51,809 bases of DNA from Minisyncoccota bacterium (GTDB taxonomy: Bacteria > Patescibacteriota > Minisyncoccia > Phycocordibacterales > UBA9973): positions 1 to 51,809 of the forward strand of contig JBBDZS010000022.1 in NCBI GenBank assembly GCA_040900015.1. The letters are read 5' to 3'. Shown one piece after another: positions 6,909 through 49,397 of this stretch; the first letter of the stretch is position 1, and each line of letters starts with the position of its first letter. The notes under the pieces were generated by a model. That model saw only the letters and a program-made list of their open reading frames with translations. It was not told the origin of the DNA and did not search any database. Position numbers and translations under genes: made by a program.

Positions 6909-6914
6909 ATGGAT

Positions 6915-7010: not shown

Positions 7011-7017
7011 TGTAATT

Positions 7018-8472
7018 TTATATCATCGGCTCAGCTTCCACAGATGGTTTATCGCCGTCCTTCTTATGCCCCTTGCCTTCGATGATAGCCTTCTCTTCCG
7101 CACTTCGGATAATGGTGGATTCCTCTTCAGCGATCAGCTTGGCCGCATCACCTCTTGGTATAGAATACTTTCTACGGGAAGCCTCGATTATTTCCTTCCT
7201 GTATGAAGTGTGGGTTGGTGGTAGAACACGCAGGGTTTCCGCCGAAAACGGATCATAAGACTCCCCGTCTATCGTCATCTTTATGTAAATTTCTCCGACT
7301 GCGAGATTTATCATATCTTTCACATCGAAAAGCGGAGAAAATTCTGGCTTCATTTTGACCGCGTCTTCCCCACCCACTCGAAATGTGATAACTGAACCTA
7401 CATTTCCGAGCACTGCCTGGTGCACCTTGGGTAATATCTGGCCGACATATTGATGAGCTATGGTAAGGTTGAGGCCGTATTTGCGCGCCTCAGATAAAAT
7501 ATTTTCAAATGTCTGAGTCACCACATTTTGAAACTCGTCGACATATAGATAGAAATCGACACGTTCTGACTCCGGTATGGCGGCACGCTCCATTCCGGCT
7601 TGCTTTATCTTAGTTAAGAACATCGAACCCAGAAAAGAGGAATTCTCTTCGCCTAGGCGACCCTTAGATAAATTGATGAAAATGATCTTGCGTTCGTTCA
7701 TCAGCTTACTTATGTCGATTTTATTCTCTTTCTGTCCAAAAATATTGCGAAGGAGCGGATCAGACAAAAATTGACCTAGCTTATTCACCAGCGGAATGAT
7801 AGCGTCGGTGTCGAACTTCTCCGACCAATCGGCAAATTCAATAGCGAAGAATCTTTTGACCATATCATCGGTGATGTATTCCACCACCTTCTGTCTATAA
7901 TTTCGATCCGTAAGCATTGATATCATTCCACGCATTGTGGCGTGAGGATAATCCAAAAGTGCCAGACAAGTGAAACGGAAGACATGTTCGAGCCTAGGGG
8001 TCCAGTTGGCACCGAATTGTTTCTGAAAAACTTCGATCAGTCCCTGGGTGAGCTGGAATTTGAACATCGGGTCCACATTGGCAAGTGGATTGAAAGAAGC
8101 AGGAAAATCAATGTCGGCTGGATCAATAATGCACACATCTTCGATACGTTCTTTAGGAATATAGTCGAGCATGGCATCGATGACATCGCCGTGTGGGTCG
8201 ATCAGACACAGACCGTGACTATATGTCACATCCTGGCGAAGCATAAGTTCTAGGAGCTTAGTCTTGCCTACGCCGGACTTACCGATGATATATAGGTGGC
8301 GCCTGCGGTCCACCCGCTTGATACCGAAAATGAATTTCTTTTCTTCGAGCGCAGCCACATAGTTCGTCCTGCCGATAAAAGACACCTCTTCGGGTTTGAC
8401 CTTGCCGAAAACAGGCAGCTCAGGCGGTGGAGGTCCATGTTTGATTATTTGCACCCGGTTCAGCTTGGACAT
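7018..8472 (-). CDS. Soluble TraD/VirD4-like (type IV coupling protein-like) P-loop ATPase, paralog 1
   Basis: Walker A IIGKSGVGKT, Walker B-like DFYLYVDEFQN, then SEARKYGLNLTIAHQY. No TM segment. Clear paralog of 10270-12339. Confidence 0.7.
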   Translation of the reverse strand: MSKLNRVQIIKHGPPPPELPVFGKVKPEEVSFIGRTNYVAALEEKKFIFGIKRVDRRRHLYIIGKSGVGKTKLLELMLRQDVTYSHGLCLIDPHGDVIDAMLDYIPKERIEDVCIIDPADIDFPASFNPLANVDPMFKFQLTQGLIEVFQKQFGANWTPRLEHVFRFTCLALLDYPHATMRGMISMLTDRNYRQKVVEYITDDMVKRFFAIEFADWSEKFDTDAIIPLVNKLGQFLSDPLLRNIFGQKENKIDISKLMNERKIIFINLSKGRLGEENSSFLGSMFLTKIKQAGMERAAIPESERVDFYLYVDEFQNVVTQTFENILSEARKYGLNLTIAHQYVGQILPKVHQAVLGNVGSVITFRVGGEDAVKMKPEFSPLFDVKDMINLAVGEIYIKMTIDGESYDPFSAETLRVLPPTHTSYRKEIIEASRRKYSIPRGDAAKLIAEEESTIIRSAEEKAIIEGKGHKKDGDKPSVEAEPMI

Positions 8473-8506
8473 ATATAGATTTATATTACCACAAATTCAG
8501 CTCTTT

Positions 8507-10267
8507 CTAATATACTTCCTGCTGATAGCACTTTTCGCAATAAACAATTTCCGGCCGGTCGGGTGCGTATCCGGTTTTGAATATTTCTGGACAAGGAGAA
8601 TTATTATGATTGTGTTTCGTCGTGTTTTGATATGTACCTGTTACATCAGCAGTACCGGCACACATGCACGCTCGTTCGTATAAATGTACCTTAAGCCTAT
8701 CGCTGATACGGCGCTCGTGCCGGCATTCACTGCACAATCTTGGAACCGGGAGATTTTCTTTTTTATAAAAAATTAGCTCGTTCTCAAGTACACGATAGGG
8801 ATTTTTGCAATTATCGCATTCGATGACCTCTTTCAAAATTTGATCGTTTGCATCATTTATTGAACTCGGCAATTCATCGGCTTTTTTAGTAATCACATAT
8901 TCCCCTCTTTCGATTTCTATCCAGCCATATTTCTTAGCTTCGGCTTCTTCTTTTGATATCGGAAAATGTTGGACAGCTAGAGTATTATTATAGCCAAATG
9001 GCGACAATTCCGCAGGAAAAAATTCTCCATATTTATATACTGTTCCCTTGGAATCGACATATGGCATTTCATCCATATTCTTTTTAATTTTAGCTGCAAG
9101 TTTCTCGTACTCTTCCTTAGTATACTGTCTGTTTAGAATACAATACTGTTTTTTCTTTAATCCGACGCACCCAAAACAATCCGAGGAACTAAAAAGATGC
9201 ACGGAATATTCGCAACTTCGACAAGACGGCCAGCAGTTGCGAGAAAATTTATTATTGTATGAATTCTGCCCACATTCCATTGTTTCATAATTTAACTCTG
9301 TATATCCTCCCCAGTTTGTAGTATCGTAGTTATCTTTATTGCTTGGTACCTCGAGATACTGGCAATAACGCATGTTTTCACCCTCGCGGACTAAATAACT
9401 GTCATTTACTTTTTTACAGTCAGTGACATAAGAGCCGCTTGAATTTACATTCCTTAGACCTTGATTATATTTCACAGGTTGAGTGTTCCAAAACGCTCTT
9501 GTTTTCTTGCGTGCCTCCGCTAGGCCTGAACTTGTATCCAACTGCATTTTTTTGATCTCTTTTTCATAATCCTCTTTTGTGTACTGTTTATTAAAAATAC
9601 AATAAGAAGACTTCCGCAGATTGGTACTACCGAAACAATCATTACATCCCACACATCCCCTACAAAACCATAAGTTCCTTGAGTCCATTGATCTCTGGGT
9701 AAAATAACATTGGTAGCATTTATCCAACCAGAATGAATCGTAACAACGCTCAGAATGCGATACGTGAGAATTATCTACACAGTCTTTACAGGAATTAACT
9801 CCGTTACCATACATGCAATCTTCAGAGTTGTTTGAATTGCATAAAAGATAAGAATTCTTGAGTCGTGAGGCATTAAATGAATACGGGCTATTGATCATAC
9901 CAATAACATTAAAGTTATACATAGGTACTTTCATCTCGAGCTCATGCAATTGTTCCCAAAAGGATATAGAGAAATCTATTTCCATACCATAATCCATTGC
10001 ATCCCAACTATCCCCGAGCCAAGTTTCTCGAGTAATTATATTCCTTCCACTTTCTTTGGGGTAAGTAGATAGAATTTCTTTGCTAGAAAAAGCATCTTTT
10101 ACTTTGAAAAGCTTACGTTCGTTTCGGTAAACCATTCTTCTTTGTGCACGACAAAGCGGACAAAAAGTCGGTGGAGGTACTTTTATTTTTTCGTAGAAAC
10201 TAAAATCCTCAGGATCTATAGTAAAGTCTCGCTTGCAGTTCTGGCAGTTTTTAACTTCTTGTTTCAT
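8507..10267 (-). CDS. Cysteine-rich double zinc-ribbon protein, paralog 1 (uncharacterised family)
   Basis: 586 aa with no signal peptide or TM and about 34 Cys by manual count. N-terminal NCQNCKRDFTIDPEDFSFYEKIKVPPPTFCPLCRAQRR is echoed near the C-terminus as ECDNCKNPYRVLENELIFYKKENLPVPRLCSECRHERR. There are two internal C.GC..(R/K)K.YCI.N.QYTKE.YEK modules. The protein ends RPEIVYCEKCYQQEVY. Its ATG lies 2 nt after the upstream ATPase stop. Confidence 0.85.
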   Translation of the reverse strand: MKQEVKNCQNCKRDFTIDPEDFSFYEKIKVPPPTFCPLCRAQRRMVYRNERKLFKVKDAFSSKEILSTYPKESGRNIITRETWLGDSWDAMDYGMEIDFSISFWEQLHELEMKVPMYNFNVIGMINSPYSFNASRLKNSYLLCNSNNSEDCMYGNGVNSCKDCVDNSHVSHSERCYDSFWLDKCYQCYFTQRSMDSRNLWFCRGCVGCNDCFGSTNLRKSSYCIFNKQYTKEDYEKEIKKMQLDTSSGLAEARKKTRAFWNTQPVKYNQGLRNVNSSGSYVTDCKKVNDSYLVREGENMRYCQYLEVPSNKDNYDTTNWGGYTELNYETMECGQNSYNNKFSRNCWPSCRSCEYSVHLFSSSDCFGCVGLKKKQYCILNRQYTKEEYEKLAAKIKKNMDEMPYVDSKGTVYKYGEFFPAELSPFGYNNTLAVQHFPISKEEAEAKKYGWIEIERGEYVITKKADELPSSINDANDQILKEVIECDNCKNPYRVLENELIFYKKENLPVPRLCSECRHERRISDRLKVHLYERACMCAGTADVTGTYQNTTKHNHNNSPCPEIFKTGYAPDRPEIVYCEKCYQQEVY

Positions 10268-10269
10268 TT

Positions 10270-12339
10270 CTATTCCAAAACTTTCCTGAGTACATCTTCC
10301 GGAACTTCTTTGGGCTTCTGTGGCACAGGTGTATCGGCTTGTTTGGGTGGGCGTGGTGGCGGAGTCGGCACAGGTGTTTGAAAAATGGGTGCGGGCGCTT
10401 TTTCCGGCTCAGGTGTTGATTCGACAATTTTCTCTTTGATTAATTCTTTGAGTCGATTCATATCGTCCGAACTCGCAGCGCGATCTTTTTGCGGATGAGA
10501 TATTTCTTTGGTTTTATCCTTTAAGGCTTCGAGTGATATTGGTGCTGGCACCGGGGGTAGCTCAGGCTTGATCTCATGAGATGCCACTAAAGGTGTTGCA
10601 AGTGTTTTACTTATTATGTCCTTAAGGGCTGTATTTTCTCTCGGCGGGTGTGGTTTGTATGTCGGTTTTAATTGCTGTCTTGCCTGAGGCTTAGGTGATG
10701 GCTTTATCTGAGGTTTTGTTTGGTGCTTCACCTCGGCTTGCTGACCTTCCTTAGGTGGAAATTCTATACCAAGGTCGGCTAGTGGCTTGTAATATTTGGA
10801 ATCATCATATCTGACTTCGTTCTCTGGACCCTTTTCGACTTTGACTTCGCCAGATTTTATTTTAGCAATGCATTCTTTGCAATACACTGGCCTGCCTGGC
10901 TCCGGCTTGAAGGGTACAGTACTCTCTCTTTTACAAAGCGAACAAATTGTCTCAAATTTCTCAAAACTACCTCCCCCCGCACCGCTACTTTGTCCACGAT
11001 GTTCAGTATAATCTCCAGCAGATCCGAGTGACATTCCGCTCCAGCTATTTATTTCATTTTCGACCACTTCTTTGGACTTGCAATAAAGTTCGCGAGAGGA
11101 ATTGATGACCTGTTCCTCGATTTCCTTGTTTCCAGATTGCACCATAGGCGGTAAAGTCTTCGCAGAGAATGGTCGTGAAGTCACCCCGTCTATCATCAGC
11201 TTCAGATAGATTTTGTAATTCGGCAAGTTCACAATATCTTGCGGAGTAAATTCTGGATCGAATTCTTTTTCTAAAAAATCCGCATCATCGGAGCCCACGC
11301 GAAAAACTATCATCGTACCGACATTGCCGAATACAGCATCGCGCACGGCCGAGCTTTTATCAGAAATCAACTGTGCAGTGTATTGGTGCGCCACGGTCAA
11401 ATTCAGACGGTATTTACGGGCCTCGGAGAGTATGCCTGCGAAGGCGTCTGTTACGAAGTTTTGGAATTCGTCCACATATAGATAGAAATCCTTACGGCTA
11501 TCCTCTGGAATTCGCACCCTCTCCATAGCGGCGAGCTGAATCTTGGTAATTATCATACCTCCTAGGAGTGAGGAGTTATCCTCACCGATACGCCCCTTGG
11601 AAACATTTACCAGGAATATTTTGCCCTGGTTCATAATATCAAAAATATTAATCGTGCTCTTAGACTGGCCGACGACATTGCGGATAATCGAAGTAGAAAG
11701 AAACTGACCGACTTTGTTTTGGATCGGAGCAATGGCCTCGTTTCTAAATTTGTCCTGCCAGGCCTCGTACTCGTGCACCCAAAATGCCTTGATGACCGGG
11801 TCCTTGAGATTTGAAATTATCTTCTGACGATAATCCTTGTCCACGAGCATCCTGGGAATACCGAGAAGTGTGGTGCCTGGGGTATCGAGAAGCGCCAGAA
11901 TAGCATTGTTGAGAATATATTCCATTCGGGCAGACCAGGCGTTTGCCCATATCTTGGTGAAAATACCCATCAATCCCGAAGCGACGAGGTGCTTATATTG
12001 TGGGTCTACTAGCTCGAGCACATTAAAACCGATATGATAGTCGGTGTCCGCCGGGTTAAAATATACAACATCCTTTAGTCGGTGCGGTGGGATGGCCGAG
12101 AGCACTCCCTCGACGAGCTCTCCGTGTGGGTCCACTACGCAAACGCCTTCGCCGTTTAAAATATTCTGAATAACCATATTGAACATTAGCACGGATTTAC
12201 CAGTGCCGGACTTTCCGAGTAGGTATACATGCTGACGGCGATCTTTGCGCTTGATTCCGAAGAGAGTATTCTTGTCGCGATATGTGGTAAGGCCCAGATA
12301 TGTCAGGTCTTTATTTAATGGTATTTCCGGCGTGTCCAT
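10270..12339 (-). CDS. TraD/VirD4-like P-loop ATPase paralog 2 with C-terminal zinc ribbon and Pro/Lys-rich tail
   Basis: Walker A LLGKSGTGKS, DFYLYVDEFQN, SEARKYRLNLTVAHQY. Downstream come CSLCKRESTVPFKPEPGRPVYCKEC and a low-complexity KPQIKPSPKPQ..PVPTPPPRPPKQ tail. Start set to the ATG at 12337-12339 (MDTPEIPLNKD). Confidence 0.7.
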   Translation of the reverse strand: MDTPEIPLNKDLTYLGLTTYRDKNTLFGIKRKDRRQHVYLLGKSGTGKSVLMFNMVIQNILNGEGVCVVDPHGELVEGVLSAIPPHRLKDVVYFNPADTDYHIGFNVLELVDPQYKHLVASGLMGIFTKIWANAWSARMEYILNNAILALLDTPGTTLLGIPRMLVDKDYRQKIISNLKDPVIKAFWVHEYEAWQDKFRNEAIAPIQNKVGQFLSTSIIRNVVGQSKSTINIFDIMNQGKIFLVNVSKGRIGEDNSSLLGGMIITKIQLAAMERVRIPEDSRKDFYLYVDEFQNFVTDAFAGILSEARKYRLNLTVAHQYTAQLISDKSSAVRDAVFGNVGTMIVFRVGSDDADFLEKEFDPEFTPQDIVNLPNYKIYLKLMIDGVTSRPFSAKTLPPMVQSGNKEIEEQVINSSRELYCKSKEVVENEINSWSGMSLGSAGDYTEHRGQSSGAGGGSFEKFETICSLCKRESTVPFKPEPGRPVYCKECIAKIKSGEVKVEKGPENEVRYDDSKYYKPLADLGIEFPPKEGQQAEVKHQTKPQIKPSPKPQARQQLKPTYKPHPPRENTALKDIISKTLATPLVASHEIKPELPPVPAPISLEALKDKTKEISHPQKDRAASSDDMNRLKELIKEKIVESTPEPEKAPAPIFQTPVPTPPPRPPKQADTPVPQKPKEVPEDVLRKVLE

Positions 12340-12347
12340 ATGGAATA

Positions 12348-12356
12348 AGTATAACA
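12348..12356 (-). promoter_or_regulatory. Candidate extended -10 promoter (TGtTATACT) for the ATPase2 operon
   Basis: The minus strand reads ..CTGTTATACTTATTCCATATG. The -10 ends 8 nt before the ATG, implying a leaderless or near-leaderless mRNA. No good -35. Confidence 0.35.
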
Positions 12357-12370
12357 GTAAATAAACAAAC

Positions 12371-12405
12371 AAAAAAGCCCAAGGCGGTCGCCGAGAGGCT
12401 TTTTT
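12371..12405 (-). terminator. Candidate intrinsic terminator downstream of the small TM ORF
   Basis: A6 run, GC-rich imperfect hairpin (gcccaaggcggtcgccgagaggc), T6 run. The stem pairing is imperfect. Confidence 0.4.
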
Positions 12406-12421
12406 GTTTGTTTAGCAAAAT

Positions 12422-12607
12422 CTATTCCAGAGTGCTCTCTTCCGATGTGCCATCAGGAAGGCTTAAGTCTACATTGATATCAGACGCATCATCAGGGACG
12501 CCACCACGAGTAGCGAACCACCATACGCCAAAACCAACAAGAAGGACAAGTACAATAACAATCAACATTGTATTTGTACCTGAAGAATCATTGTGGGTAG
12601 GTTCCAT
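12422..12607 (-). CDS. Small single-pass membrane protein (hypothetical)
   Basis: 61 aa with a central hydrophobic helix MLIVIVLVLLVGFGVWWFA and an acidic C-terminus. It occupies an otherwise empty gap. Confidence 0.35.
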   Translation of the reverse strand: MEPTHNDSSGTNTMLIVIVLVLLVGFGVWWFATRGGVPDDASDINVDLSLPDGTSEESTLE

Positions 12608-12693
12608 ATTATGTATTCAAAAAATTACTAATAATATCGGCCACGGCATTATTATACCATTTGCAAGAACGCGAGGGCAACCAACTTTTCCAC

Positions 12694-13239
12694 TTATGGC
12701 TGAAACAGGTCTGCTGGAGAAATGCGCACGGAGGTTACAGTTGGAAACTGTTTGGCTGTAGCTTCAATCTGAAGAAGAAGAATGCCCACGCGACAAGACC
12801 CACCACCGGTCTTATTATTAGGATCGTTGAATGTAAGAGTCGCCACACCATTTGATATTGTGGCATTCTCGAGCGTTACTCCTTCAAGAGGAAATTCAGT
12901 TTCTATGCCTTCCGCTCTTTCTGCTTGCGTTAGCTCTCCTCTCAACAAAAGCTTGATTGATTCCGCAAGTGGTGTAGTAGTGTCTGGAAGCACACGGTCT
13001 ACAGCTACCAACCCTTTACTACTGCAGAGTATCCCTCCTTGACCTTGATCCAAGTCTGGATTGTAATAATAAAGCTTAATAGGAATCGTAACTACATCTT
13101 CCTCTTCCTCTTCCTCTTCGTTTACATCTTCGATAACGGGATCATTTATGACCCGATTATCATCATCATTCCTCATCGCATAATATCCCAACCCGAACAA
13201 AATTATTAATATTAAAACAACCAATAATATTTTTTTCAT
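12694..13239 (-). CDS. GerMN-domain secreted/membrane-anchored protein
   Basis: N-terminal signal/anchor MKKILLVVLILIILFGL, acidic linker, then a GerMN-like core (IKLYYYNP..., LLRGELTQAE, ATLTFND). Confidence 0.55.
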   Translation of the reverse strand: MKKILLVVLILIILFGLGYYAMRNDDDNRVINDPVIEDVNEEEEEEEDVVTIPIKLYYYNPDLDQGQGGILCSSKGLVAVDRVLPDTTTPLAESIKLLLRGELTQAERAEGIETEFPLEGVTLENATISNGVATLTFNDPNNKTGGGSCRVGILLLQIEATAKQFPTVTSVRISPADLFQP

Positions 13240-13259
13240 ACATATATTATACCATAGTT

Positions 13260-13772
13260 TTAGCCCTTCCGCACCTTAGTCATAGTGACCTCGTTTCCTT
13301 CTTTATTGTGAACAGCAGAATCAAAATAATTTTCCATTATCAATATGCCCCTTCCCTTTTCCTTGAATAAGCCTTCTTCACTTGTAGGGTCAGGAACTTC
13401 CTCTCTCTTAAAACCATTTCCTTCGTCTCGGATATGGATAACTACTTTATCTTTTGATATCTCGATTGTCACATACACATGCTTTGAGTTTCTTTTTTCT
13501 GGATGCTTCGATATTTCTATCCTAGCCATCTGACACAGATCTCCACCTTCAGGCTTAGTCAATCCTAAATTACCATGAGCAATGGCATTGATCAGGGCCT
13601 CACGAAACCCAAGCTGTATATCGTATATCTCTTCCTCGCTCCACCCAACCATCTGCAATCTTTCTTCTAGTGCCGTAGCCGCCGATTCAAGTAAATCTAT
13701 ATCCGTCGGCAAAGCCCATAGGTCCTCCTTGAATTCGAAATTCGGCTTGTTAGCGTCTAATCCTTCATACAT
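13260..13772 (-). CDS. RsbW/SpoIIAB-like anti-sigma factor serine kinase (HATPase_c family)
   Basis: N box EALINAIAHGN and G1 box IRDEGNGF. Size of 170 aa fits. Confidence 0.6.
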   Translation of the reverse strand: MYEGLDANKPNFEFKEDLWALPTDIDLLESAATALEERLQMVGWSEEEIYDIQLGFREALINAIAHGNLGLTKPEGGDLCQMARIEISKHPEKRNSKHVYVTIEISKDKVVIHIRDEGNGFKREEVPDPTSEEGLFKEKGRGILIMENYFDSAVHNKEGNEVTMTKVRKG

Positions 13773-13811
13773 AAATAGACTATATCTTAATTTACTAGCT
13801 TTGCAAACAAT

Positions 13812-13831
13812 AAAGCCCCGACCGGGGCTTT
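13812..13831 (-). terminator. Intrinsic terminator after dnaK
   Basis: 8-bp stem aaagcccc / ggggcttt with loop gacc, located 10 nt past the dnaK stop and followed on the minus strand by ATTGTTTG. Confidence 0.6.
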
Positions 13832-13840
13832 ATTTGAAGA

Positions 13841-15781
13841 TTACTGTGTTTTTGGTTCCTCGCCTTCCGGGCCTTTAGGTTTTTCCTTGAATTCGGCATC
13901 CCGAGCAGGTCCTGAGCCTGTTGAAGGATTGACCTCGGCTGGCTGTTCTTCTGGAGTGCCAGCTGGTGGGGTTTCAGCTCCGAACTTGGCCATAGCCTCG
14001 CCAATCTTGGACATCTCAGCGGAGAGTTCTTCGGTCGCCTTCTTTATAGCATCCGTGTCAGTGCCGTCCTTTGCCCCTCGAAGTGCAGTGATCTTGGCAT
14101 TCACACCCTCTTTGAGCGCAGCGTCGAGTTTGGCATCGTTGTCCTTGAGCGCCTTCTCGGCAGTATACAAGGTCATCTCGGCAGTGTTCTTCAGATCAGC
14201 AATGTCTTTCTTCTTCTTATCCTCTTCCGCATGAGCTTCGGCATCTGCTTGCATCTTTTTTATGTCTTCTTCCTTGAGGCCGGAGCTGGCTTCGATCCGT
14301 ATGGACTGGGTCTTGCCGGAAGCCTTATCCTTGGCGGTGACATTTAAGATGCCGTTTGCGTCCACATCGAAAGTCACTTCGACCTGAGGCATGCCACGCG
14401 GTGCTGGAGGTACTCCGTCTAGTATAAACCTGCCGAGGGACTTATTATCGCTTGCCATAGGGCGCTCACCTTGGACGATGTGGATCTCCACGGAGGTCTG
14501 ATTGTCGGCTGCGGTCGAAAACACCTGCGACTTCGAGGACGGAATAGTGGTATTCCTTTCCACAAGCTTGGTGGCTACTCCTCCGAGAGTCTCGATGCCG
14601 AGAGACAGCGGTATGACATCGAGCAAAAGCACGTCACGTACATCTCCCTGGAGCACTCCGGCTTGCACTGCAGCACCGAGAGCCACGACTTCATCAGGAT
14701 TGATGGATAGGTTCGGAGTCTTGCCGAACACCTTCTTCACTTCTTCTACTATCTTCGGCATTCTAGTCTGACCTCCGACCATTATAATCTCATGCATATC
14801 CTCAATCTTAAATCCGGAAGCAGCCATTGCACGTTTAGTAATCTCAATCGAACGAGTAATATACTCATCAGCAATAGCTTCCAACTGGGCTCGCGTCATC
14901 TTGAGAAGAAGATGTTGAGGACCTTCGTCAGTAGAAGTGATAAACGGAATATTTATTTCTGTTTCGATCGCAGTCGAAAGTTCGATCTTGGCTTTTTCAG
15001 CTGCTTCGTCGAGGCGCTGTAGCGCCAATTTGTCTTTGCGCACATCCACGCCGGATGTTTTTTTGTATTCTTCGGCAATCCAACCAATGATCTTGTGGTC
15101 AATATCTCGACCTCCTAGATGACTGTCGCCATCGGTGGACTTAACTTCGATCACATCATCGCCAATTTCGAGCACGGACACATCGAATGTACCACCTCCG
15201 AAGTCATATACCACCACTTTTTCATTTTTCTTTTTATTAAATCCGTATGCGAGCGCAGCGGCCGTCGGCTCGTTGATAATTCTTTTTACATCGAGTCCCG
15301 CAATCAATCCTGCGTCCTTGGTGGCTTTTCTTTGTGCGTCATTAAAGTATGCAGGCACAGTGATGACGGCCTCGGTAACTTTTTCCCCGAGCTTCGCTTC
15401 CACATCAGCCTTTATCTTACCTAATATCATCGCGGATACTTCCTCTGGGCGCATCCATTTGTCGCCGATTTTTACTTCCACTCCACCAGTCGCGCCTTTT
15501 TGAATTTTGAATGATGCATTCTTAAGATCCTTCTGCACTTCCGGGTCATCGAAGTTGTGGCCCATAAAACGCTTAATACCGTACACAGTATTTTCCGGAT
15601 TAGTTACTGCTTGTCTCTTTGCGAGCAAGCCCACCAACCTGTCTCCGTTTTTTGCAACCGAAACAATAGATGGAGTTGTTCGTGCTCCCTCTGCATTTTC
15701 TACTATTTTCGGAGTACCCCCTTCGATAATGGCTACTGCCGAATTTGTCGTACCCAAGTCTATTCCTATGATTTTTGACAT
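13841..15781 (-). CDS. dnaK: Molecular chaperone DnaK (Hsp70)
   Basis: [18 protein letters not shown] and VGGQTRMP signatures, with a full substrate-binding domain and lid. Confidence 0.97.
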
Positions 15782-15843
15782 AATATTATTTGATTAAACT
15801 TATAATTTTGTTGTTTATATTATTTTATACCAAAACCTAATCT

Positions 15844-15879
15844 TTAGCAAGTATTTCGTGACCACAAAATACTTGTCAA
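15844..15879. promoter_or_regulatory. Imperfect 13-bp inverted repeat (operator candidate) between dnaK and the PaaX-like gene
   Basis: TTAGCAAGTATTT (15844-15856), 10-nt spacer, AAATACTTGTCAA (15867-15879); 11 of 13 positions are complementary. On the dnaK strand the right arm contains a TTGACA hexamer. Confidence 0.5.
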
Positions 15880-15907
15880 AAGATAATATATATTATAAAA
15901 TGTACCT

Positions 15908-16453
15908 ATGTCAAGTAAAGATAAGGAAAACAACCAGTATTCTCGAAAAATCCTTAGAATATTGGGCCAAAAGTCGGCCGTATCGCTTGAAGATATAACC
16001 GATAAGGTAAGCGTCCACAAAGGGAAAAAGGACCCTAAATACGCGATTACACGCTCTTTAAAAGGCCTTCGTGAGGCCGGATTAATAGAGTGCATTTCCT
16101 CCCCACACAACGAATACGCCCGCCTGACAAAGGAAGGTAAAAAGAAGGTCCACAGCCTAGAGCTAGAAAGCGATACCAGCTTGGTCAACACCTCCTGGGA
16201 TGGACAATGGAGAATCATCCTGCTTGACCTGCCGGAGAGTCGCAAGGCCGAGCGCGAGAGCCTGCGCTACCTTCTAAAAAAGGCCGGTTTCGTGTGTCTG
16301 AAGAATTCTGCCTGGATCTCCCCTTTCCCCTTCGAGCACCTGTTCACAAATATCAAAAAAGACCTGGGTCTGACTACCGAAATGATGATCATAACCACAT
16401 CAAATATCGACGAGGAAACTAAAAAAATCCTATTCGAAACTTTCGGGAAGTAG
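15908..16453 (+). CDS. PaaX-like transcriptional regulator (winged helix plus Cas2-like middle domain)
   Basis: N-terminal wHTH (ILRILGQKSAVSLEDITDKV). Then the PaaX-type signature WDGQWRIILLDLPESRKAERESLRYLLKKAGFVCLKNSAWISPFP. Confidence 0.55.
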   Translation: MSSKDKENNQYSRKILRILGQKSAVSLEDITDKVSVHKGKKDPKYAITRSLKGLREAGLIECISSPHNEYARLTKEGKKKVHSLELESDTSLVNTSWDGQWRIILLDLPESRKAERESLRYLLKKAGFVCLKNSAWISPFPFEHLFTNIKKDLGLTTEMMIITTSNIDEETKKILFETFGK

Positions 16454-18211
16454 TTAATATACTTCTTTGTTGTAATGTTCGGCACAAACTACTTTTTTCG
16501 GCCCACCTTCGTTTTCCGGTAAATATGTAGTATCAATTTCTTTATCTCCGAAATAACACATTCTCTTTCTGAGAACCATTGGGTTTCTTAATTTTAATCT
16601 TTCATTATGCCGCTCGTCGGGATGAATAGATGGTAGTGGTAAATTAAATCTTCGATAGAAATTCAACTCTTGTTCAAGAATTTTAAAGGGTCTCCCCGTA
16701 ATTTCACATTCTATAACTTCATTCATGATATTGTCCCCTACTTCTGTTATAGTCTCAGGTAAATCTTTCCCATTTATCGTGGTTTGATAAGAGCCTAAAG
16801 TATATTCACGCCAAGAAAAACCTTTATCTTTTACAGAATCCCGACTAAGAGGAAAATAATCTTGAGCTACAGTTTCGTTATATGAAAAAGGCGAAATCTC
16901 TGGTGGAAAAAACTCTCCAAAAGCATAAGATTTACCGTTTTTATCTATATATGGCATATTTTTCATCTGTTCTATGATCTGTGGCACTAGGTTTTCATAC
17001 TCTTTTTTTGTATATTGCTTATTCAAAATACAATATTGTTTTTTATCTATACCTACACACCCAAAGCAATTATGAGAATTGGTTACCATATAACCATATA
17101 AAATTTCGTGAGAATACCATACAGTAGCTCCAAAAAATACCCTATTATCTTGAACTCCTACTCCGACACTTTCATAAGTTAATTCAGAATTATCACCACA
17201 GCCAGGCCCCACATCATACGAATCTCTTAAACCTTTTCCTCCCCAGTTAGCATATTTAGTATTTTCAATTACGTCTTTAACATCAAAAATCTGATAGCAA
17301 TTCCTAGCATCTGACACATGATCTCCTACTACATTATCTGTATTAGTAAGTTTTAAATGTTTATGGATCGCACTTTGCCATAATTCTCGAAATTTCTTTT
17401 TAGCATTTACAATACCTGAGCGAGTATTTAGAGCAAGTTCATTTTTCTTTTTTAGATATTCTTCTCTGGAATATTGTATATTCTCTATACAATAACTTTT
17501 ATTACGTAAATTGGTACTTAATATACAATCCGAGCAATTTCGACAATCATATAAAAAATATGAATCAAGACAATTTTCACTTTCTCTGGAGAAAAAAAGC
17601 TTACTGGAATCGTTACAATAAACATTTTCATAGCTAAATTCAGTATTAAAAGTAATATATGAGTCCAGAGTAAATTTACCCCCTGCCATTCGATTACAGA
17701 ACATACAATCTTCGCTAGCCCAAGCCCCACTTACTAAATAACAATTTTTCTGTTCAACTGTGTAATTACAAAATCTTGCATTTACGGATTTAGAATCAAA
17801 AAGAGCAACATGAGGAATTCTTTCCAATAACTCCTTAAACTGCTGAAAAAAAGGCTTATTGAAGTCATAATCCATTCCGAAATCGCATGGATCCCATTTA
17901 TCGCTCCACCAATATTCTCGATCGTATGTAGTAAATTTAGAATCCGGGTGATAAATAGAAATATGTTCACCGGTAGAACCAGGGGTACTATTTGGACGTC
18001 GAAACAAAGAATGTTCATTACGCCACAACAGACGACGAATGAGACGACACTCTGGACACCAAGTCGGCGACGGAACTTTTATTTTTTCGTAAAAAGAAAA
18101 ATCTTCTTTTTCTATAACGAAATCCCCTTTGCAGTTTTGGCAAGCTTGCACTGAACCCTTCGGTAGTGAGCTCAGGGCCGAACTGCTTGTTGAATGTGTT
18201 CTTATTTCCAT
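16454..18211 (-). CDS. Cysteine-rich double zinc-ribbon protein, paralog 2
   Basis: 585 aa. Motifs CQNCKGDFVIEKEDFSFYEKIKVPSPTWCPECRLIRR, YWWSDKWDPCDFGMDYDF, CRNCSDCILSTNLRNKSYCIENIQYSREEY and CFGCVGIDKKQYCILNKQYTKKEYE. The C-terminal ribbon is degenerate (ITGRPFKILEQELNFYRRFNLPLP, ending VVCAEHYNKEVY). Confidence 0.85.
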   Translation of the reverse strand: MEIRTHSTSSSALSSLPKGSVQACQNCKGDFVIEKEDFSFYEKIKVPSPTWCPECRLIRRLLWRNEHSLFRRPNSTPGSTGEHISIYHPDSKFTTYDREYWWSDKWDPCDFGMDYDFNKPFFQQFKELLERIPHVALFDSKSVNARFCNYTVEQKNCYLVSGAWASEDCMFCNRMAGGKFTLDSYITFNTEFSYENVYCNDSSKLFFSRESENCLDSYFLYDCRNCSDCILSTNLRNKSYCIENIQYSREEYLKKKNELALNTRSGIVNAKKKFRELWQSAIHKHLKLTNTDNVVGDHVSDARNCYQIFDVKDVIENTKYANWGGKGLRDSYDVGPGCGDNSELTYESVGVGVQDNRVFFGATVWYSHEILYGYMVTNSHNCFGCVGIDKKQYCILNKQYTKKEYENLVPQIIEQMKNMPYIDKNGKSYAFGEFFPPEISPFSYNETVAQDYFPLSRDSVKDKGFSWREYTLGSYQTTINGKDLPETITEVGDNIMNEVIECEITGRPFKILEQELNFYRRFNLPLPSIHPDERHNERLKLRNPMVLRKRMCYFGDKEIDTTYLPENEGGPKKVVCAEHYNKEVY

Positions 18212-18241
18212 GTAATTCCTTAACTTATCATATATGATATA

Positions 18242-19993
18242 CTAATACACTTCTTGCTGATAGCACTTTTCGCAGTACACTATTTCCGGTCTACTTGGAG
18301 AGTAAGAAGTCTCGAACTCCTCTTCACATTTATTATCACTATGAGTATGATTATTTTTATCACACATACAGGATCTATGCCAGAGTCGGAGCGGGTTTCG
18401 CTTACCTAGCCTTTGGAAATGCCGGCAGTTTGGGCACAACCGTGGAAGAGCCAGTTTCTTGCTTTTATAAAACTGTAGCTCGTCTGGTATAATTTTAAAT
18501 GCCTCCGTGCATTGTTCGGCACACTCGCCTCTGTGTATACAACCGATAACCTTACCTAAAATGGACTCATCCGTCTCGTCAATGTGGTCCGGCAAGTCCT
18601 TTGCTTTAATATCAACTTTGTAGTCTCTTTTTTCTTTTTCTTTCCATTTGAATCCATACTCGATGGCCTTTTCCCCGGAAAGTGGATAATATTCTTCCGC
18701 AACAGTTTCATTGTATGCGAAGGGTGAAAGTTCTGCAGGAAAAAATTCGCCATACTTATACACCCTGCCCTTCTTGTCCACATAGGGCATCTTCTTCATA
18801 TGAGTAATTATTTTAGGTAGGAGTTTGTCATATTCTGCCTTGGTATATTTCTTGTTTAAAATTGAATAGTCGTGATCTCTCACACCTACGCACCCAAAAA
18901 GAAATTTAGCACCGTAGCACATATAAGTATAGGTCGTATCCATACCACCGTGATTGAGAACTGAGAAAAGCTGTTTAGCGCCATTAAGACCTGTATCCAC
19001 ACCTTCATACATAAATTCTACTTTCGCCCCTGCGCCGTAGGCGTCATAACTGTCTCTTAAATTTAAGGCATGAGTAATAAATTTAGAATTCTCAACCTCG
19101 CCGTATATGTCGAACAACATTCGGCCGTTTTTGGAATTAAGTATATTGTCGCCGGTGACATTGACCGACTTATAGGTATAAGCAAAACGACGGAATTGTA
19201 GCTTGAGAAAATTTGCATACTCCTCTTTAAACCTGGTCAAATTTTCGTAGCTACCAAAGTCATACTCGGCAATCCTGCGTTCATATTCCTCCTTGGTATA
19301 CTGAATATTAAAAATACGATAGCTCTTGTGTCTCAAGTTCACACACCCTAGACAATTGTGGATATTCAAACAAGAAGTAAGAAACATCGAATCTATGCAC
19401 TCATCGCTATCATAACTAAAATGAGTTCGATACAAACTACCGCAAAGAACATCCTCGTAGCACTGCTCAGACTTCATAGTGTTGTAAAGATCGAAGGAAT
19501 CCTTTACCCCTACCACCCCAGCCGCATAGGAAACATTCTCATTTGAAAACGAAGCATATGTGAGATAACAATTCTTGCAATCTAAATTATGGTTGCCATA
19601 TTCGCTAAGCGGACAATTGGTGTTGCCTAGATTACATAAAGGCACTCGAGACATTAGCTCTTTAAACTGGTCGAAAAAAGGTCGAGAAAAATCATAATCC
19701 ATGCCGTAATCAAAAGGGTCCCACTTATCACTCCACCAAATATCCCTATCGTAAACCGTAAGACCGGTCTCAGGGGAGAACATGGAAACAATGGGGGCCC
19801 CGGAAAAAGCGCATATGTTGTGATGGAGCGAACGTTCATTACGCCAAACCAATCTTCTCCTCGCCCGACACAAAGGACAAAAAGTCGGAGGTGGAACTTT
19901 TATTTTTTGGTAAAAGCCAAAATCTTCACTCTCAATCGTGAATTCATGTTTACAGTTTTGACAATTTTTTCTTTCTTGCTTCATATGTTTCAT
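18242..19993 (-). CDS. Cysteine-rich double zinc-ribbon protein, paralog 3
   Basis: 583 aa. Motifs NCQNCKHEFTIESEDFGFYQKIKVPPPTFCPLCRARRR, IWWSDKWDPFDYGMDYDF, FGCVGVRDHDYSILNKKYTKAEYD and FKIIPDELQFYKSKKLALPRLCPNCRHFQR. It ends RPEIVYCEKCYQQEVY. Its start overlaps the ArsR stop (ATGA). Confidence 0.85.
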   Translation of the reverse strand: MKHMKQERKNCQNCKHEFTIESEDFGFYQKIKVPPPTFCPLCRARRRLVWRNERSLHHNICAFSGAPIVSMFSPETGLTVYDRDIWWSDKWDPFDYGMDYDFSRPFFDQFKELMSRVPLCNLGNTNCPLSEYGNHNLDCKNCYLTYASFSNENVSYAAGVVGVKDSFDLYNTMKSEQCYEDVLCGSLYRTHFSYDSDECIDSMFLTSCLNIHNCLGCVNLRHKSYRIFNIQYTKEEYERRIAEYDFGSYENLTRFKEEYANFLKLQFRRFAYTYKSVNVTGDNILNSKNGRMLFDIYGEVENSKFITHALNLRDSYDAYGAGAKVEFMYEGVDTGLNGAKQLFSVLNHGGMDTTYTYMCYGAKFLFGCVGVRDHDYSILNKKYTKAEYDKLLPKIITHMKKMPYVDKKGRVYKYGEFFPAELSPFAYNETVAEEYYPLSGEKAIEYGFKWKEKEKRDYKVDIKAKDLPDHIDETDESILGKVIGCIHRGECAEQCTEAFKIIPDELQFYKSKKLALPRLCPNCRHFQRLGKRNPLRLWHRSCMCDKNNHTHSDNKCEEEFETSYSPSRPEIVYCEKCYQQEVY

Positions 19994-20262
19994 TCTAACA
20001 TTCTAACGAACTTTAGAATGATATTTCCACGCGAGGTCAACTTATGACGTACTGATTTACTGTCGCTTCTCTTCATTAAGAGACCCGCAATGGCCATCTT
20101 GCCAATATGGGCCGAAATATTTTTCATATCTGATTTTAATCTATCTGATATCTCTTGCACTGATAATTCAGGCTCCTTGGAAAGCAAGGCTAAAATTTGC
20201 AACCTTCGATGATTGGCAACTCCTTTAATTATTCTTTCTAATTCTCTGTTAGATTTCTTCAT
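19990..20262 (-). CDS. ArsR/SmtB-family winged-helix transcriptional regulator
   Basis: ANHRRLQILALL..LSVQEISDRL..NISAHIGKMAIAGLL matches the ArsR HTH pattern. It contains no Cys, so it lacks the classical CxC metal site. Confidence 0.8.
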   Translation of the reverse strand: MKKSNRELERIIKGVANHRRLQILALLSKEPELSVQEISDRLKSDMKNISAHIGKMAIAGLLMKRSDSKSVRHKLTSRGNIILKFVRMLE

Positions 20263-20302
20263 ATTTTTATTTTAACATTCTATAGAACGTTGGAATGTAC
20301 TA

Positions 20303-21964
20303 TTAAGCTATGTTTTGCTTGTAACAGTCCTCGCAGGCGATTTTCTGGTAGCCCCATTCCGGAGGATAGTAAGCGCTAATTTCTTTTTTACAGTAAAAGC
20401 ATTTGTAAGGATAGCTTTTTACAACCGCAGTCTTACGTGCTTTCTTTATGATACGCAAATCAAAATGCTCTCTAGGAAGGGCAAAACCTTTTCTCTTATG
20501 GAATTCATATTCAGCTGGAGAAATGTTAAATCGAAAGTTACTCTCGGGGCAAATAAGAGCCTGGTTAGAAACACTCGAGTCCGTATCTTGAATACTGTCG
20601 GGTAAATCCAGGGAAGAGATTCCGTCGTGGGATGAAAGGTCTTCTTCTGACCAGTATCCTCCCTTTTTTACAACTTCATTCTTTGTCGTGTCCGGAAAGT
20701 AGATAATACCGTTAGAAAAATTATAGTCGCAGACACTCATAAAATATGGCATAAATAGTCCATACTCTCCCCTGCTTTTCATATCGGAAATAATCTTATC
20801 TTTAAGAGACTCGTAATCCTCTTTGCTGTATTGCTTGTTTAAAATGCAATATTTCTTTTTTTTGAGACCCACGCATCCGAAACAATACTCCACTTCCTCG
20901 CACAAATCTATGTATTCTGAGTATCTGCCGACAGAGTATATTGAGTTCTTTATCTGATATCCTCCGTTCACTGCACTGTTGCTACCAGATAACTCGGTAT
21001 GCCAACTTACCGCCTGATCAATACTATCCTTTGAGAAAAGACCGCGTAGGCAGTTTCTACAATTCTGCGAGTCGTCCCAAGTAAAGCAGTTAGAGCATTT
21101 GTCGCAATTATTAAGATAGTTGCCGGTAGAGCCCGCAGACTTTAGATTGAAATTTTCCCTGTGAACAACTTCGTTTCTCAGAATATTTGCGAATTCTGCT
21201 CTTAGATTCTCCAAGGATTTATAGGAATCAAGCTTGAGCTTTTTTATCTCCACTTCATATTCTTCTTTCGTGTACTGCTTGTTTTTTATGCAGTATTGCT
21301 TGTTACGTAGGTTCCAGCTCATAAAGCAATTCTGGCAGTTACGGCAATCAAAAAGAAAAAAGGAGTCTATGCAATCCCGAGAGTTTTCTGAAAAGTTCAG
21401 ATTAAAGGAACTATGGCAGGTCAGGCAATCATAACAGTTCTGTATATGAAAAGAAATTGCTACATCAAAAGAGTCCTTGGCGTCCAAAACCCTGTATCCA
21501 TAATTTAAGTTATCGCATTTTGCAAGAGCTCTTGATAGATAGCAGTTTTTTGAGTCCCACACATCCTCACACCAATCACAGTTGACGTTGTTTTTCCCAG
21601 CCTGGTGTGGACGTGGGATTTTACCTTGAAGCTCCTTCAGTTGGTCAAAAAACGGCCTTTCTGAATCATATTCTTGACCAAAAGCCATTGGATCCCATGC
21701 ATCGCTCCACCATTCGTGGGAGGTGTATATAGGGTATGTCTTTCTCTCCGGCAACACCGTAATCAGACTCTCACCTGACAGACTCGAAGCTCCTTTACGG
21801 AATTTACCGAAAATGGAAAAAGCAAGATATTGCTTCATTCTACAAAAGAAACACTGTTCTGGAATTTCTAAACCTACTTTCTGGTATAAGTCCAAATCAC
21901 CTGAATTTATTTCAAATTGCTTCTCGCAGTTTACACAAATTTTATTCTCCGTCTTTGTATTCAT
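20303..21964 (-). CDS. Cysteine-rich double zinc-ribbon protein, paralog 4 (most divergent)
   Basis: 553 aa. Motifs CVNCEKQFEINSGDLDLYQKVGLEIPEQCFFCR, EWWSDAWDPMAFGQEYD, CRNCQNCFMSWNLRNKQYCIKNKQYTKEEYE and CFGCVGLKKKKYCILNKQYSKEDYE. It ends IACEDCYKQNIA. Its first 23 nt overlap the grpE 3' end. Confidence 0.85.
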   Translation of the reverse strand: MNTKTENKICVNCEKQFEINSGDLDLYQKVGLEIPEQCFFCRMKQYLAFSIFGKFRKGASSLSGESLITVLPERKTYPIYTSHEWWSDAWDPMAFGQEYDSERPFFDQLKELQGKIPRPHQAGKNNVNCDWCEDVWDSKNCYLSRALAKCDNLNYGYRVLDAKDSFDVAISFHIQNCYDCLTCHSSFNLNFSENSRDCIDSFFLFDCRNCQNCFMSWNLRNKQYCIKNKQYTKEEYEVEIKKLKLDSYKSLENLRAEFANILRNEVVHRENFNLKSAGSTGNYLNNCDKCSNCFTWDDSQNCRNCLRGLFSKDSIDQAVSWHTELSGSNSAVNGGYQIKNSIYSVGRYSEYIDLCEEVEYCFGCVGLKKKKYCILNKQYSKEDYESLKDKIISDMKSRGEYGLFMPYFMSVCDYNFSNGIIYFPDTTKNEVVKKGGYWSEEDLSSHDGISSLDLPDSIQDTDSSVSNQALICPESNFRFNISPAEYEFHKRKGFALPREHFDLRIIKKARKTAVVKSYPYKCFYCKKEISAYYPPEWGYQKIACEDCYKQNIA

Positions 21965-22538
21965 ACACGTTTACCCTTGCTGGGCGCATCACTCGCTCGC
22001 CCAGCTTGTAGCCCTTCTGGACCACTTCGGCCACCTTGTGGTCCATCTCCTTTTTGTCGGTCGGCACCATATCAATCGATTCATGAATGTTCGGATCGAA
22101 AGGTTCGCCCCCTTCCCCCACGCCCTTAACGCCGTATTCCTCGAATATAATGTTCATCTGGGAGTATATGTATTCCACACCTTTGCGCCACGAAGAATCC
22201 ACTTTTTCCCAGGCATCCTTGTTGGCAAAGGCCATATTGAAACTATCAACTACAGAGAGAAATCTCGAGAGGATACGCTCGCGCACCGCCTCGGAAAAGA
22301 CTGTCTTACGGTCATCCTCCTGCTTTTTATAATTAGCAAAATCCGCCCGCTCCTTCTGCCAGCCGTTTAGGTATTCCTCTTTTTCCTTCTTAGCCTGCTT
22401 TAGGTCTGCGCGAAGTTTCTTGATGGTCTTCTTCAAATCCTCCTCGCCGTCCTCGTTGAATTCGAATTCCAACACTTCCGCTTCCAGCTCAGCTTGGGTA
22501 TCTTCCGTATTTTTCTTTTCTTCCTCTTCGCTTGACAT
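21942..22538 (-). CDS. grpE: Nucleotide exchange factor GrpE
   Basis: Acidic N-terminus, coiled coil (LKKTIKKLRADLKQAKKEKEEYLNGWQKERADFANYKKQ) and C-terminal beta domain (GYKLGERVMRPARV). The ATG at 22538 is preferred over 22556 because the upstream terminator U-tract abuts 22556. Confidence 0.9.
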   Translation of the reverse strand: MSSEEEEKKNTEDTQAELEAEVLEFEFNEDGEEDLKKTIKKLRADLKQAKKEKEEYLNGWQKERADFANYKKQEDDRKTVFSEAVRERILSRFLSVVDSFNMAFANKDAWEKVDSSWRKGVEYIYSQMNIIFEEYGVKGVGEGGEPFDPNIHESIDMVPTDKKEMDHKVAEVVQKGYKLGERVMRPARVNVYEYKDGE

Positions 22539-22564
22539 ATATGGTAATACTAGCATAAAAAAAT

Positions 22565-49141: not shown

Positions 49142-49154
49142 GTATGAAACTTTG

Positions 49155-49393: not shown

Positions 49394-49397
49394 CTAG

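Follow-up and report, generated by a model that had tools for sequence, protein, structure and literature searches.

What function calls for four large, cysteine-rich proteins of no named family, encoded in and around the chaperone genes of a Minisyncoccota bacterium? The question is raised by positions 1 to 51,809 of contig JBBDZS010000022.1 (assembly GCA_040900015.1), a stretch of 51,809 nucleotides that was analyzed in full and is referred to here as the window. We use X as a working name for the cysteine-rich family and par1 to par4 for its four copies in the window. The answer that we favor, although tentatively, is that X proteins are non-enzymatic zinc-finger scaffolds or adaptors that act as partners or clients of soluble, orphan VirD4/TraD-like ATPases. 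All four X open reading frames (ORFs) lie on the minus strand, encode 553 to 586 amino acids, and have exactly the coordinates given in a preliminary description of the locus, which was made from the nucleotide sequence without database searches; no fifth copy was found in the window by BLASTP.

X is a large family. An exhaustive representative search returned 5,009 clusters at 50% identity with E-values of 1e-3 or below, and 2,158 at 1e-30 or below, with a uniform length of ~550 to 600 amino acids. The orthologue searches covered par1, par3, and par4, and the word-indexed searches with these three copies each gave more than 6,000 significant matches, all of them unnamed or labeled "hypothetical protein" and none with a Pfam domain; the named sources were Candidatus Paceibacterota, Nomurabacteria, Minisyncoccia, and "Patescibacteria group". 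At least 525 X loci were found in a scan of one genome per GTDB species, where the records that carry a lineage name are all Patescibacteria and mostly Parcubacteria-group phyla, including Sungiibacteriota, Liptonbacteria, Staskawiczbacteria, Ryanbacteria, and Parcubacteria. The phyletic distribution, which the preliminary description had proposed to check, is among named members confined to Patescibacteria of the Parcubacteria/Paceibacteria group. Tandem arrays of X are also carried by third-party annotation (TPA) bins labeled "uncultured Candidatus Saccharibacteria" (L005, L006, L016, L022, and many others, with CAY and CAZ record prefixes). Because X in these metagenome-assembled genome records is up to 71% identical to a Paceibacterota query, the label is probably generic or wrong.

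The family has no homologues among INPHARED phages, IMG/VR, or PLSDB plasmids, and a mobile, phage, or plasmid origin was rejected on that basis. An anti-phage defense system was likewise rejected, since X matches none of the PADLOC protein models, in which the neighboring ATPases described below show only generic P-loop similarity to mad8 and HerA. One par4-like cluster bears the name "Caib/baif family protein", which we treat as a legacy mis-annotation: it has no precomputed Pfam domain, and there was no CoA-transferase match in 77 diverse X members.

The alignment and identity check proposed in the preliminary description was carried out with BLASTP. The four copies are 31 to 40% identical (40% for par1-par3 and par2-par3, 37% for par1-par2, 31% for par4 against the others), with E-values from 1e-68 to 1e-151; at such protein identities, synonymous sites are saturated for the dN/dS comparison that had been proposed. 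All five sequence blocks that had been described as common to the four copies were found. The N-terminal CxxC...CxxCR block is present in all four copies, and the cysteine-repeat string quoted for the third block was located in par1. The WWSD.WDP block is present too but is not invariant, as it had appeared to be: par1 reads WLGDSWDA, and across the four copies the only residues that never vary are W, D, W, D, G, D, F, Q, E, L, and P. For the C-terminal tail, the description holds: par1 and par3 share it exactly, par2 has a changed version (C..H), and that of par4 diverges. Under the identical 16-residue tail of par1 and par3, 7 of the 48 nucleotides differ, which points to purifying selection rather than gene conversion as the reason that the tail was kept.

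The absence of a signal peptide or transmembrane (TM) segment was also borne out: there is no hydrophobic N terminus or TM segment, and the maximum Kyte-Doolittle value in a 19-residue window is at most 1.07, as expected of cytoplasmic proteins. The AT-richness judged by eye is real, with GC contents of 0.34 to 0.41 in the paralogs versus 0.44 to 0.49 in dnaK, grpE, rpsI, rplM, and rpoA. Third-position GC content (GC3) is clearly low only in par2 (0.24) and par1 (0.35), with par3 and par4 both at 0.43. The par2 value compares with 0.42 to 0.60 in the adjoining genes, which hints at an expression level or a history unlike that of its neighbors.

From its N to its C terminus, an X protein has a treble-clef zinc finger, a linker domain of aromatic/acidic character (WWSD.WDP), two homologous core modules of ~140 residues in tandem, a conserved domain with the motif MPY.D..GEFFP..SPF.YNET, the treble-clef finger again in a second copy, and, at the end, a finger of the CxxC-x17-CxxC type (Table 1). 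The internal duplication noticed in the preliminary description is strongly supported, as the two core modules of par3 align over 137 columns with an hhalign probability of 99.8% (E = 1.8e-29). The two terminal "ribbons" described as mirrored are homologous to each other (hhalign 99.4%, E = 1.9e-21), but they are duplicates in the same orientation at symmetric places, one N-terminal and one C-proximal, and form no mirror image. The finger at the extreme C terminus is a third finger that differs in type; it aligns with a finger of the neighboring ATPase (hhalign 94.8%, E = 4.9e-8), its first cysteine pair is C.C or a single C, and the insert is variable.

Two AlphaFold2 models were built, for par3 (predicted local distance difference test score (pLDDT) 84.4, predicted template modeling score (pTM) 0.86) and par1 (pLDDT 85.5, pTM 0.86). 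In all three finger modules of both models, a loop that joins two short strands carries the first CxxC, and the second sits at the N terminus of a helix. The structure prediction that had been suggested as a check on ordered cysteine clusters thus gives zinc-finger geometry in both par1 and par3, although of the treble-clef kind and not that of a classical two-hairpin ribbon. X presumably binds zinc.

Pfam models place the fingers near two families. In the set of 77 diverse members, zf_Tbcl_2 matched 38 and zf_Tbcl matched 25 (E < 0.1 for zf_Tbcl), with best E-values of 1.1e-6 and 4.9e-6, respectively, and no other model recurred. The N-terminal and C-proximal modules resemble zf_Tbcl (PF13451) in cysteine pattern and treble-clef secondary structure, and the extreme C terminus resembles zf_Tbcl_2 (PF23477)/TIGR04272. 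The CxxC-x17-CxxC domain has been found experimentally to bind zinc in small proteins of Methanosarcina (PMC12704099). The window copies of X, however, fall below the Pfam cut-offs (13.9-15.6 versus 24-27 bits): par2 matched zf_Tbcl with 15.6 bits (E = 0.016), below the 24-bit gathering threshold, with no match for the other window copies, and par3 matched zf_Tbcl_2 with 13.9 bits (E = 0.043), where the cut-offs are 27 bits (PF23477) and 36 bits (TIGR04272). The zf_Tbcl_2/TIGR04272-type finger of the neighboring ATPase scores 44.9 bits, above the cut-off. Moreover, the fingers make up only ~25% of X, and these Pfam families are themselves of unknown function.

A resemblance to the LIM domain is marginal. 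The X tail motif W.R.C.C...C..F.T.Y.P.RPEIVYC..CY aligns to the second LIM finger of avian CRP (1ctl) with E = 0.023, and the Pfam LIM model gave weak matches in 4 of the 77 members, but half a domain is covered and common ancestry is unsupported beyond the treble-clef fold.

The remaining three quarters of the protein has no detectable relative. The core of ~430 residues gave no match above cut-off in Pfam, NCBIfam, or PADLOC and nothing significant among PDB sequences, where there were weak sub-threshold matches only. Foldseek searches of both models against PDB and BFVD returned nothing at E ≤ 0.001 (best E-values 0.1-0.14 in PDB and 0.03-0.06 in BFVD); besides small zinc-ribbon proteins, the top matches were left-handed β-helices with template modeling scores of at most 0.25 and a root-mean-square deviation of ~10 Å. 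The statement that this architecture belongs to no named family therefore holds in the Pfam, NCBIfam, PADLOC, PDB sequence, and Foldseek searches, and the X core may be a new repeat fold.

The core has a regular cysteine pattern. X proteins contain a median of 36 cysteines (range 22 to 47 in 152 diverse representatives), and those of the core keep one phase modulo 3 across more than 100 residues throughout the family; among 3098 adjacent spacings, 3 (n = 1131), 9 (681), 6 (227), and 12 (204) were counted. Module 1 comprises eight units of 12 residues, (E/K)-(N/D)-C-(Y/F)-x-(C/S)-x-(N/D)-(C/L)-x-(N/K)-(C/S); positions 3, 6, 9, and 12 are Cys/Ser, and positions 2 and 8 are Asn/Asp. Since cysteine in the core columns is replaced by Ser, Val, and Leu rather than by Asp or by His, which is nearly absent there, these residues are read as buried ladder or packing positions rather than metal ligands. 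The exception is a CxxCxxCxxC run at residues 208 to 217 of par3, which is well conserved (0.77-0.95 Cys) and, on its conservation, could be a real metal site.

Whether these repeats form the cysteine-laddered solenoid that had been proposed is less clear. The 12-residue register speaks for it, as do the short strands every 6 to 12 residues through the repeat region of the par1 model (pLDDT ~70), but matches to β-helix proteins were only non-significant. X shares with β-solenoids, such as hexapeptide transferases, γ-carbonic anhydrase, and the Tenebrio antifreeze protein, a 6/12-residue period, Cys/Ser and Asn/Asp ladders, and short strands, and the 12-residue cysteine β-helix of the Tenebrio protein TmAFP (1ezg) was the one PDB profile match besides the LIM finger, a non-significant one (E = 1.1-5). 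The cysteine spacing of X is, however, 3/9 and not 6/6, and X is cytoplasmic, for which reason disulfides are unlikely. No Pfam Hexapep match was found in the 77 members; X repeats read x-(N/D)-C-(Y/F)-x-(C/S), spaced 3/3, where hexapeptide proteins have [LIV]-[GAED]-X2-[STAV]-X. The likeness to known β-solenoid proteins is best regarded as an analogy only, and a Cys/Asn-laddered solenoid core as a plausible, undemonstrated reading of the models.

The pattern of conservation gives no sign of an active site. Columns conserved at 90% or more are Cys, aromatic, Pro, Gly, Asp, and Asn, ~50 of them non-Cys, and they include no His, Lys, or Ser set of a catalytic type. The conserved D168/D317 and N229/N380 are equivalent sites in the two core repeats. 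Given these symmetric Asp and Asn positions and the lack of a catalytic-type set, we read X as a non-enzymatic, zinc-capped repeat scaffold.

The preliminary description ascribed the differential decay of the finger cysteines to subfunctionalization after local duplication. The orthologue searches contradict this. Each of the three copies covered has its own orthologue series elsewhere, with identities of up to 81% for par1, 72% for par3, and 74% for par4, and almost every member of the par1 series is exactly 586 residues long. When 236 full-length array members from 77 loci were compared, 98% had their closest relative in another locus or genome, and the best identity between two copies within a locus was 58%. 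Average-linkage clustering at 45% identity gave ~16 subfamilies with at least five members, most of them single-copy per locus. The same three cysteines of the second par4 finger are absent in 47 of 47 par4 orthologues, in all of which fingers 1 and 3 are intact, so that the loss taken for decay is ancient and fixed. An origin by local duplication in recent times, or gene conversion, was rejected on the strength of the relatives in other genomes, the fixed cysteine loss, and the nucleotide differences in the tail. The X copies are old, stably maintained, and mutually diverged subfamilies arranged in same-strand tandem arrays.

A single in-frame stop or a frameshift interrupts some array members (L023 13364-15145, L021 3948-5676, and L039 2567-4248); these are either occasional pseudogenes or assembly errors. 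Introns or inteins were considered and rejected, as the ~2.5-kb tblastn matches to a 585-residue query either run on into the neighboring paralog or cover genes interrupted in this way.

Arrays of X are the rule. At least two full copies are present in 61 of 77 species-level loci, arrays can comprise as many as 10 full-length copies within 21 kb, contig JALLOO010000001.1 has at least 17 copies within 39 kb, and X genes account for 37% of all bases across the 77 sampled loci. Unbiased clustering of all ORFs in these X-anchored loci recovered X (286 members in 77 loci) and an ATPase resembling type IV coupling proteins (70 members in 37 loci), and no further family recurred beyond 9 of the 77 loci. 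The usual layout is an ATPase gene, five to seven X genes, and a second ATPase gene, tightly packed on one strand. Among the 32 X loci that span 20 kb or more, 19 contain the ATPase, and its density is 4.5 per 100 kb. There are 5,713 homologues of such ATPases in 2,918 genomes of the candidate phyla radiation (CPR), ~2 per genome, of which only 148 lie near virB4, and exaptation was raised by the authors of that study (bioRxiv 10.1101/2025.01.22.634366). If genomes of ~0.8 to 1 Mb are assumed, we estimate that the ATPase density in X loci is ~15 to 20 times that genome-wide.

In the window, two such ATPases, A and B, bracket par1. They resemble the type IV coupling proteins VirD4/TraD/TrwB, with TrwB_AAD_bind (29 and 35 bits, cut-off 20.5), T4SS-DNA_transf, and TraG-D_C all above the Pfam cut-off, and share with them the Walker A (GKSG.GK) and Walker B (YVDEFQN) motifs. 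They differ in having no N-terminal TM segment (maximum 19-residue hydropathy 1.05 and 1.27), in falling far under the NCBIfam equivalog cut-offs for type IV coupling proteins, and in the C-terminal zinc finger that ~40% of the VirD4-like ATPases carry. After its finger, ATPase A has a low-complexity C-terminal region of ~200 residues (10270-10900, minus strand) rich in Pro, Lys, Glu, and Gln. The listed TTG start of ATPase A at 12372 adds a hydrophobic leader of 11 residues; its true start may be the ATG at 12339.

The reading that we tentatively prefer combines these features. X would be a soluble, non-enzymatic, zinc-stabilized scaffold or adaptor acting with the anchor-less, VirD4/TraD-like hexameric ATPases that bracket its arrays. 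The subfamilies would supply distinct binding specificities or build a hetero-oligomer, and the basic terminal fingers would dock on the nucleic acid or protein partner that the motor works on. In the lineage of the window, this putative X-ATPase module has come to lie within grpE-dnaK-dnaJ and is probably co-transcribed with these genes.

Several observations weigh against such a partnership. When the search was anchored on the VirD4-like ATPases, X was found in only 13 of 52 metagenome loci of at least 8 kb; these were mainly the loci of closer ATPase relatives, and relatives at 43 to 49% identity almost never had X. In 40 of the 77 X loci, the locus sequence examined contains no ATPase, and in the close relative L083 the order is dnaK-ATPaseA-ATPaseB-dnaJ, where X is missing from between the two ATPases. 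ATPase-only loci have housekeeping neighbors (29 of 62 encode a sigma70_r4/HARE-HTH protein, and 19 have SecDF-like genes), and since housekeeping genes are the commonest neighbors, synteny in these small genomes may be inertia. The zinc finger is present on 8 of 27 ATPases beside X and on 31 of 73 without X, so the shared finger was rejected as a specific link between the two families. The ATPase family is broader than X and does not depend on it, and X arrays prefer the vicinity of the ATPase. The adjacency is compatible with functional coupling in Paceibacteria and also with historical synteny.

The alternative that takes the second view, that X proteins are nucleic acid-binding architectural or regulatory proteins, bivalent through two basic fingers and independent of the ATPases, with adjacency a matter of historical synteny, is unlikely but survives best among the rivals. 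The two zf_Tbcl-type fingers are basic (isoelectric points (pI) 9.8 and 9.4) and the core is acidic to neutral; the finger-module-module-finger layout is symmetric; the fixed loss of one finger in some subfamilies would give monovalent variants; and the linkage in the direction from ATPase to X is weak. Against it, Pfam detected no nucleic acid-binding domain besides the fingers in the 77 members, the whole-protein pI is near neutral (median 6.1), and X adjoins the ATPase at ~15 to 20 times the genome-wide density. In the scaffold reading, too, basic end fingers and two-fold internal symmetry suggest a bivalent binder, and subfamilies with one dead finger would be monovalent.

A bolder form of the scaffold reading, which we consider rather doubtful, is that X arrays and anchor-less VirD4-like ATPases together constitute an unrecognized ATP-driven machine specific to Paceibacteria. 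The fold of X would then form a class of its own, a cytoplasmic solenoid of 12-residue repeats with Cys/Asn ladders and treble-clef fingers as caps. The X subfamilies, at least ~16 in number, would either assemble into one hetero-oligomeric scaffold or offer a set of adaptors for substrates, for instance in the handling of imported nucleic acid or in trafficking at the episymbiont-host interface.

Two further proteins accompany the ATPases in other loci. A protein of ~345 residues with Sigma70_r4 and HARE-HTH domains is the commonest ATPase neighbor where X is absent (among the ATPase-anchored loci L081-L160); its copy in the window (35613-36641, minus strand) is ~23 kb from the ATPases. A protein of ~170 residues with a single N-terminal TM helix and no Pfam match is encoded between or beside paired ATPase genes in nine X-anchored and ~6 ATPase-anchored loci (e.g., L014 5082-5924, L028 1683-2228, L032 148-624, and L022 5108-5644), and is not in the window. 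One possibility is that it tethers the anchor-less ATPases to the membrane as a separate protein.

Table 1. Coordinates of the X paralogs, of the modules of par3, and of associated genes in the window.
Feature	Position	Strand	Description
par1	8507-10267	-	586 aa, 34 Cys; 2 nt after ATPase A, 34 nt before ATPase B
par2	16454-18211	-	585 aa; second finger and tail both without some Cys ligands; ends back-to-back with convergent PaaX_M-like gene
par3	18242-19993	-	583 aa; three terminal fingers all intact
par3 N-terminal treble-clef finger	19853-19972	-	residues ~8-47; C11, C14, C39, C42; zf_Tbcl-like
par3 core module 1	19262-19678	-	residues ~106-244; lead helix, then 12-residue Cys/Ser-Asn/Asp-aromatic repeats, ending C..C..LR.K.Y.I.N.QYTKEEYE
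par3 core module 2	18809-19231	-	residues ~255-395; duplicate of module 1; β-rich, high pLDDT
par3 second treble-clef finger	18389-18553	-	residues ~481-535; homologous to N-terminal finger
par3 C-terminal finger	18245-18388	-	residues ~536-583; CxxC-x17-CxxC / zf_Tbcl_2 / LIM-like type; homologous to finger on many neighboring ATPases
par4	20303-21964	-	553 aa; start overlaps grpE stop by 23 nt; second treble-clef finger without 3 of 4 Cys
ATPase A, VirD4/TraD-like P-loop	10270-12372	-	no TM; C-terminal CxxC-x17-CxxC finger; ~200-aa Pro/Lys-rich tail
ATPase B, VirD4/TraD-like P-loop	7018-8472	-	no TM; 46% identical to ATPase A
grpE	21942-22556	-	immediately upstream of par4
dnaK	13841-15781	-	between par2-par4 trio and ATPase A-par1-ATPase B block
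dnaJ	5811-6908	-	downstream of ATPase B
ArsR/HTH_20-type winged-helix ORF	19990-20262	-	90 aa, no Cys; stop overlaps par3 start (ATGA)

In the direction of transcription, the order of genes around X in the window is rpsI, a terminator-like hairpin, grpE, par4, an ArsR-type winged helix-turn-helix (wHTH) gene, par3, and par2, which is convergent with a PaaX_M-like gene, and then dnaK, a gene for an RsbW-like HATPase (HATPase_c_2), one for a Germane lipoprotein, ATPase A, par1, ATPase B, and dnaJ. The grpE-dnaK-dnaJ set (5811-22556, minus strand) is thus split by ~13 kb of inserted genes, namely three X genes, the wHTH gene, those for the RsbW-like HATPase_c_2 protein, the Germane lipoprotein, and the two VirD4-like ATPases, and the fourth X gene. 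Related genomes preserve the order grpE-X-...-PaaX_M(-)-dnaK-ATPaseA-X-(X)-ATPaseB-dnaJ, and embedding among the chaperone genes is also seen in L001, L002, L004, L009, L023, L051, L082, L084-086, and L094. The preliminary description had passed over this embedding, as well as the ATPases at the flanks and the tendency of X to form tandem arrays.

This context invites the suggestion that X proteins are redox- or zinc-dependent holdases or DnaK co-chaperones from a heat-shock operon, comparable to the zinc-finger domain of DnaJ or to Hsp33. The interleaving with grpE, which overlaps par4 by 23 nucleotides, and with dnaK and dnaJ, its recurrence in related loci, and the 22 to 47 cysteines per family member would suit such a role, which we nevertheless consider quite improbable. 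A dnaK, dnaJ, or grpE gene is near X in just 7 of the 77 loci (~9%), and large arrays elsewhere have no chaperone genes. The DnaJ_CXXCXGXG model (PF00684) matches the DnaJ of the window and no X protein among the window copies and the 77 members, in which the Hsp33 model also finds no match, and ClpB is already encoded in the window. HrcA/CIRCE heat-shock control was rejected, there being no CIRCE element within three mismatches in the window, and dnaK has a strong promoter-like site of its own (11 of 12 positions matched, 15914-15885).

The PaaX_M gene, which encodes a Cas2-like domain, lies upstream of dnaK in divergent orientation (15908-16453, plus strand), and does so likewise in L001, L002, L004, L009, L023, L051, L084, L085, and L094. 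Its product also gives weak CARF-like PADLOC matches, and could be the HrcA substitute of this lineage as heat-shock regulator. The ArsR/HTH_20-type ORF sits in the 309-nucleotide gap between par4 and par3, within the interval covered by the preliminary description, where it was overlooked; it looks unannotated. Since it has no cysteine, it probably senses no metal through thiolates. As a conserved regulator of X it was rejected, homologues being found in only 3 of 80 other loci (L022, L034, and L038). Other genes of the window are housekeeping genes for ClpB, AlaRS, MnmA, YceG, BipA, GlmS, a class-V aminotransferase, IF-2, and CysRS. The sole Rfam matches are tRNAs, four of them clustered (49070-49576, minus strand) and one isolated (42103-42185, minus strand).

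It is very improbable that X proteins are effectors exported to the host by the VirD4-like coupling ATPases through a type IV-like channel. X does adjoin homologues of coupling proteins and is a multi-copy family in episymbiotic bacteria, and the small protein with an N-terminal TM helix encoded between ATPase genes in nine loci is a possible membrane tether; however, the ATPases have no TM anchors, the window contains neither a type IV secretion system channel gene (VirB4 etc.) nor a relaxase gene, and CPR homologues of the ATPase are rarely near virB4 (bioRxiv 10.1101/2025.01.22.634366). The subfamilies, moreover, are strongly conserved across genomes (70-81%) and not diversifying, and folded proteins with several zinc sites would be poor substrates for translocation.

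A homologue of CutA1 (divalent ion tolerance) occurs in or next to X arrays in 5 of the 77 loci, e.g., L037 11780-12112. That X proteins are metal or thiol buffers, giant metallothionein-like stores under the adjacent ArsR-type regulator, is hardly credible despite the median of 36 cysteines per protein, the translational coupling of the ArsR/HTH_20 ORF to par3, and the CutA1-like gene, because the regulator lacks cysteine and is rare in other loci, the core cysteines show the exchanges of buried packing residues, and, unlike a metallothionein-like store, X is a protein of 550 to 600 residues with ~50 highly conserved non-Cys columns, many well-conserved non-Cys motifs, and at least 16 ancient subfamilies.

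Literature searches for the X family, for cysteine-rich proteins of Parcubacteria, and for the finger domains found no description of X. Its sequences can be found in public databases under the name "hypothetical protein"; the novelty lies in recognizing the family, its architecture, and its gene-neighborhood pattern, and the combination of arrays with orphan ATPases appears to be unreported. Large families of unknown function that are specific to the CPR are not, as such, unusual. Patescibacteria genomes are ~0.6 to 1 Mb, and that tens of kilobases are spent on X in genomes so streamlined, with at least 17 copies in 39 kb and subfamilies kept at 70 to 81% identity, implies that its function is important and lineage-specific. 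A concrete lead comes from the association with orphan VirD4-like ATPases, the purpose of which in CPR bacteria is an acknowledged puzzle. If X arrays and these ATPases do form an ATP-driven machine, this would be the first function for the ~2 orphan coupling-protein homologues of each CPR genome.

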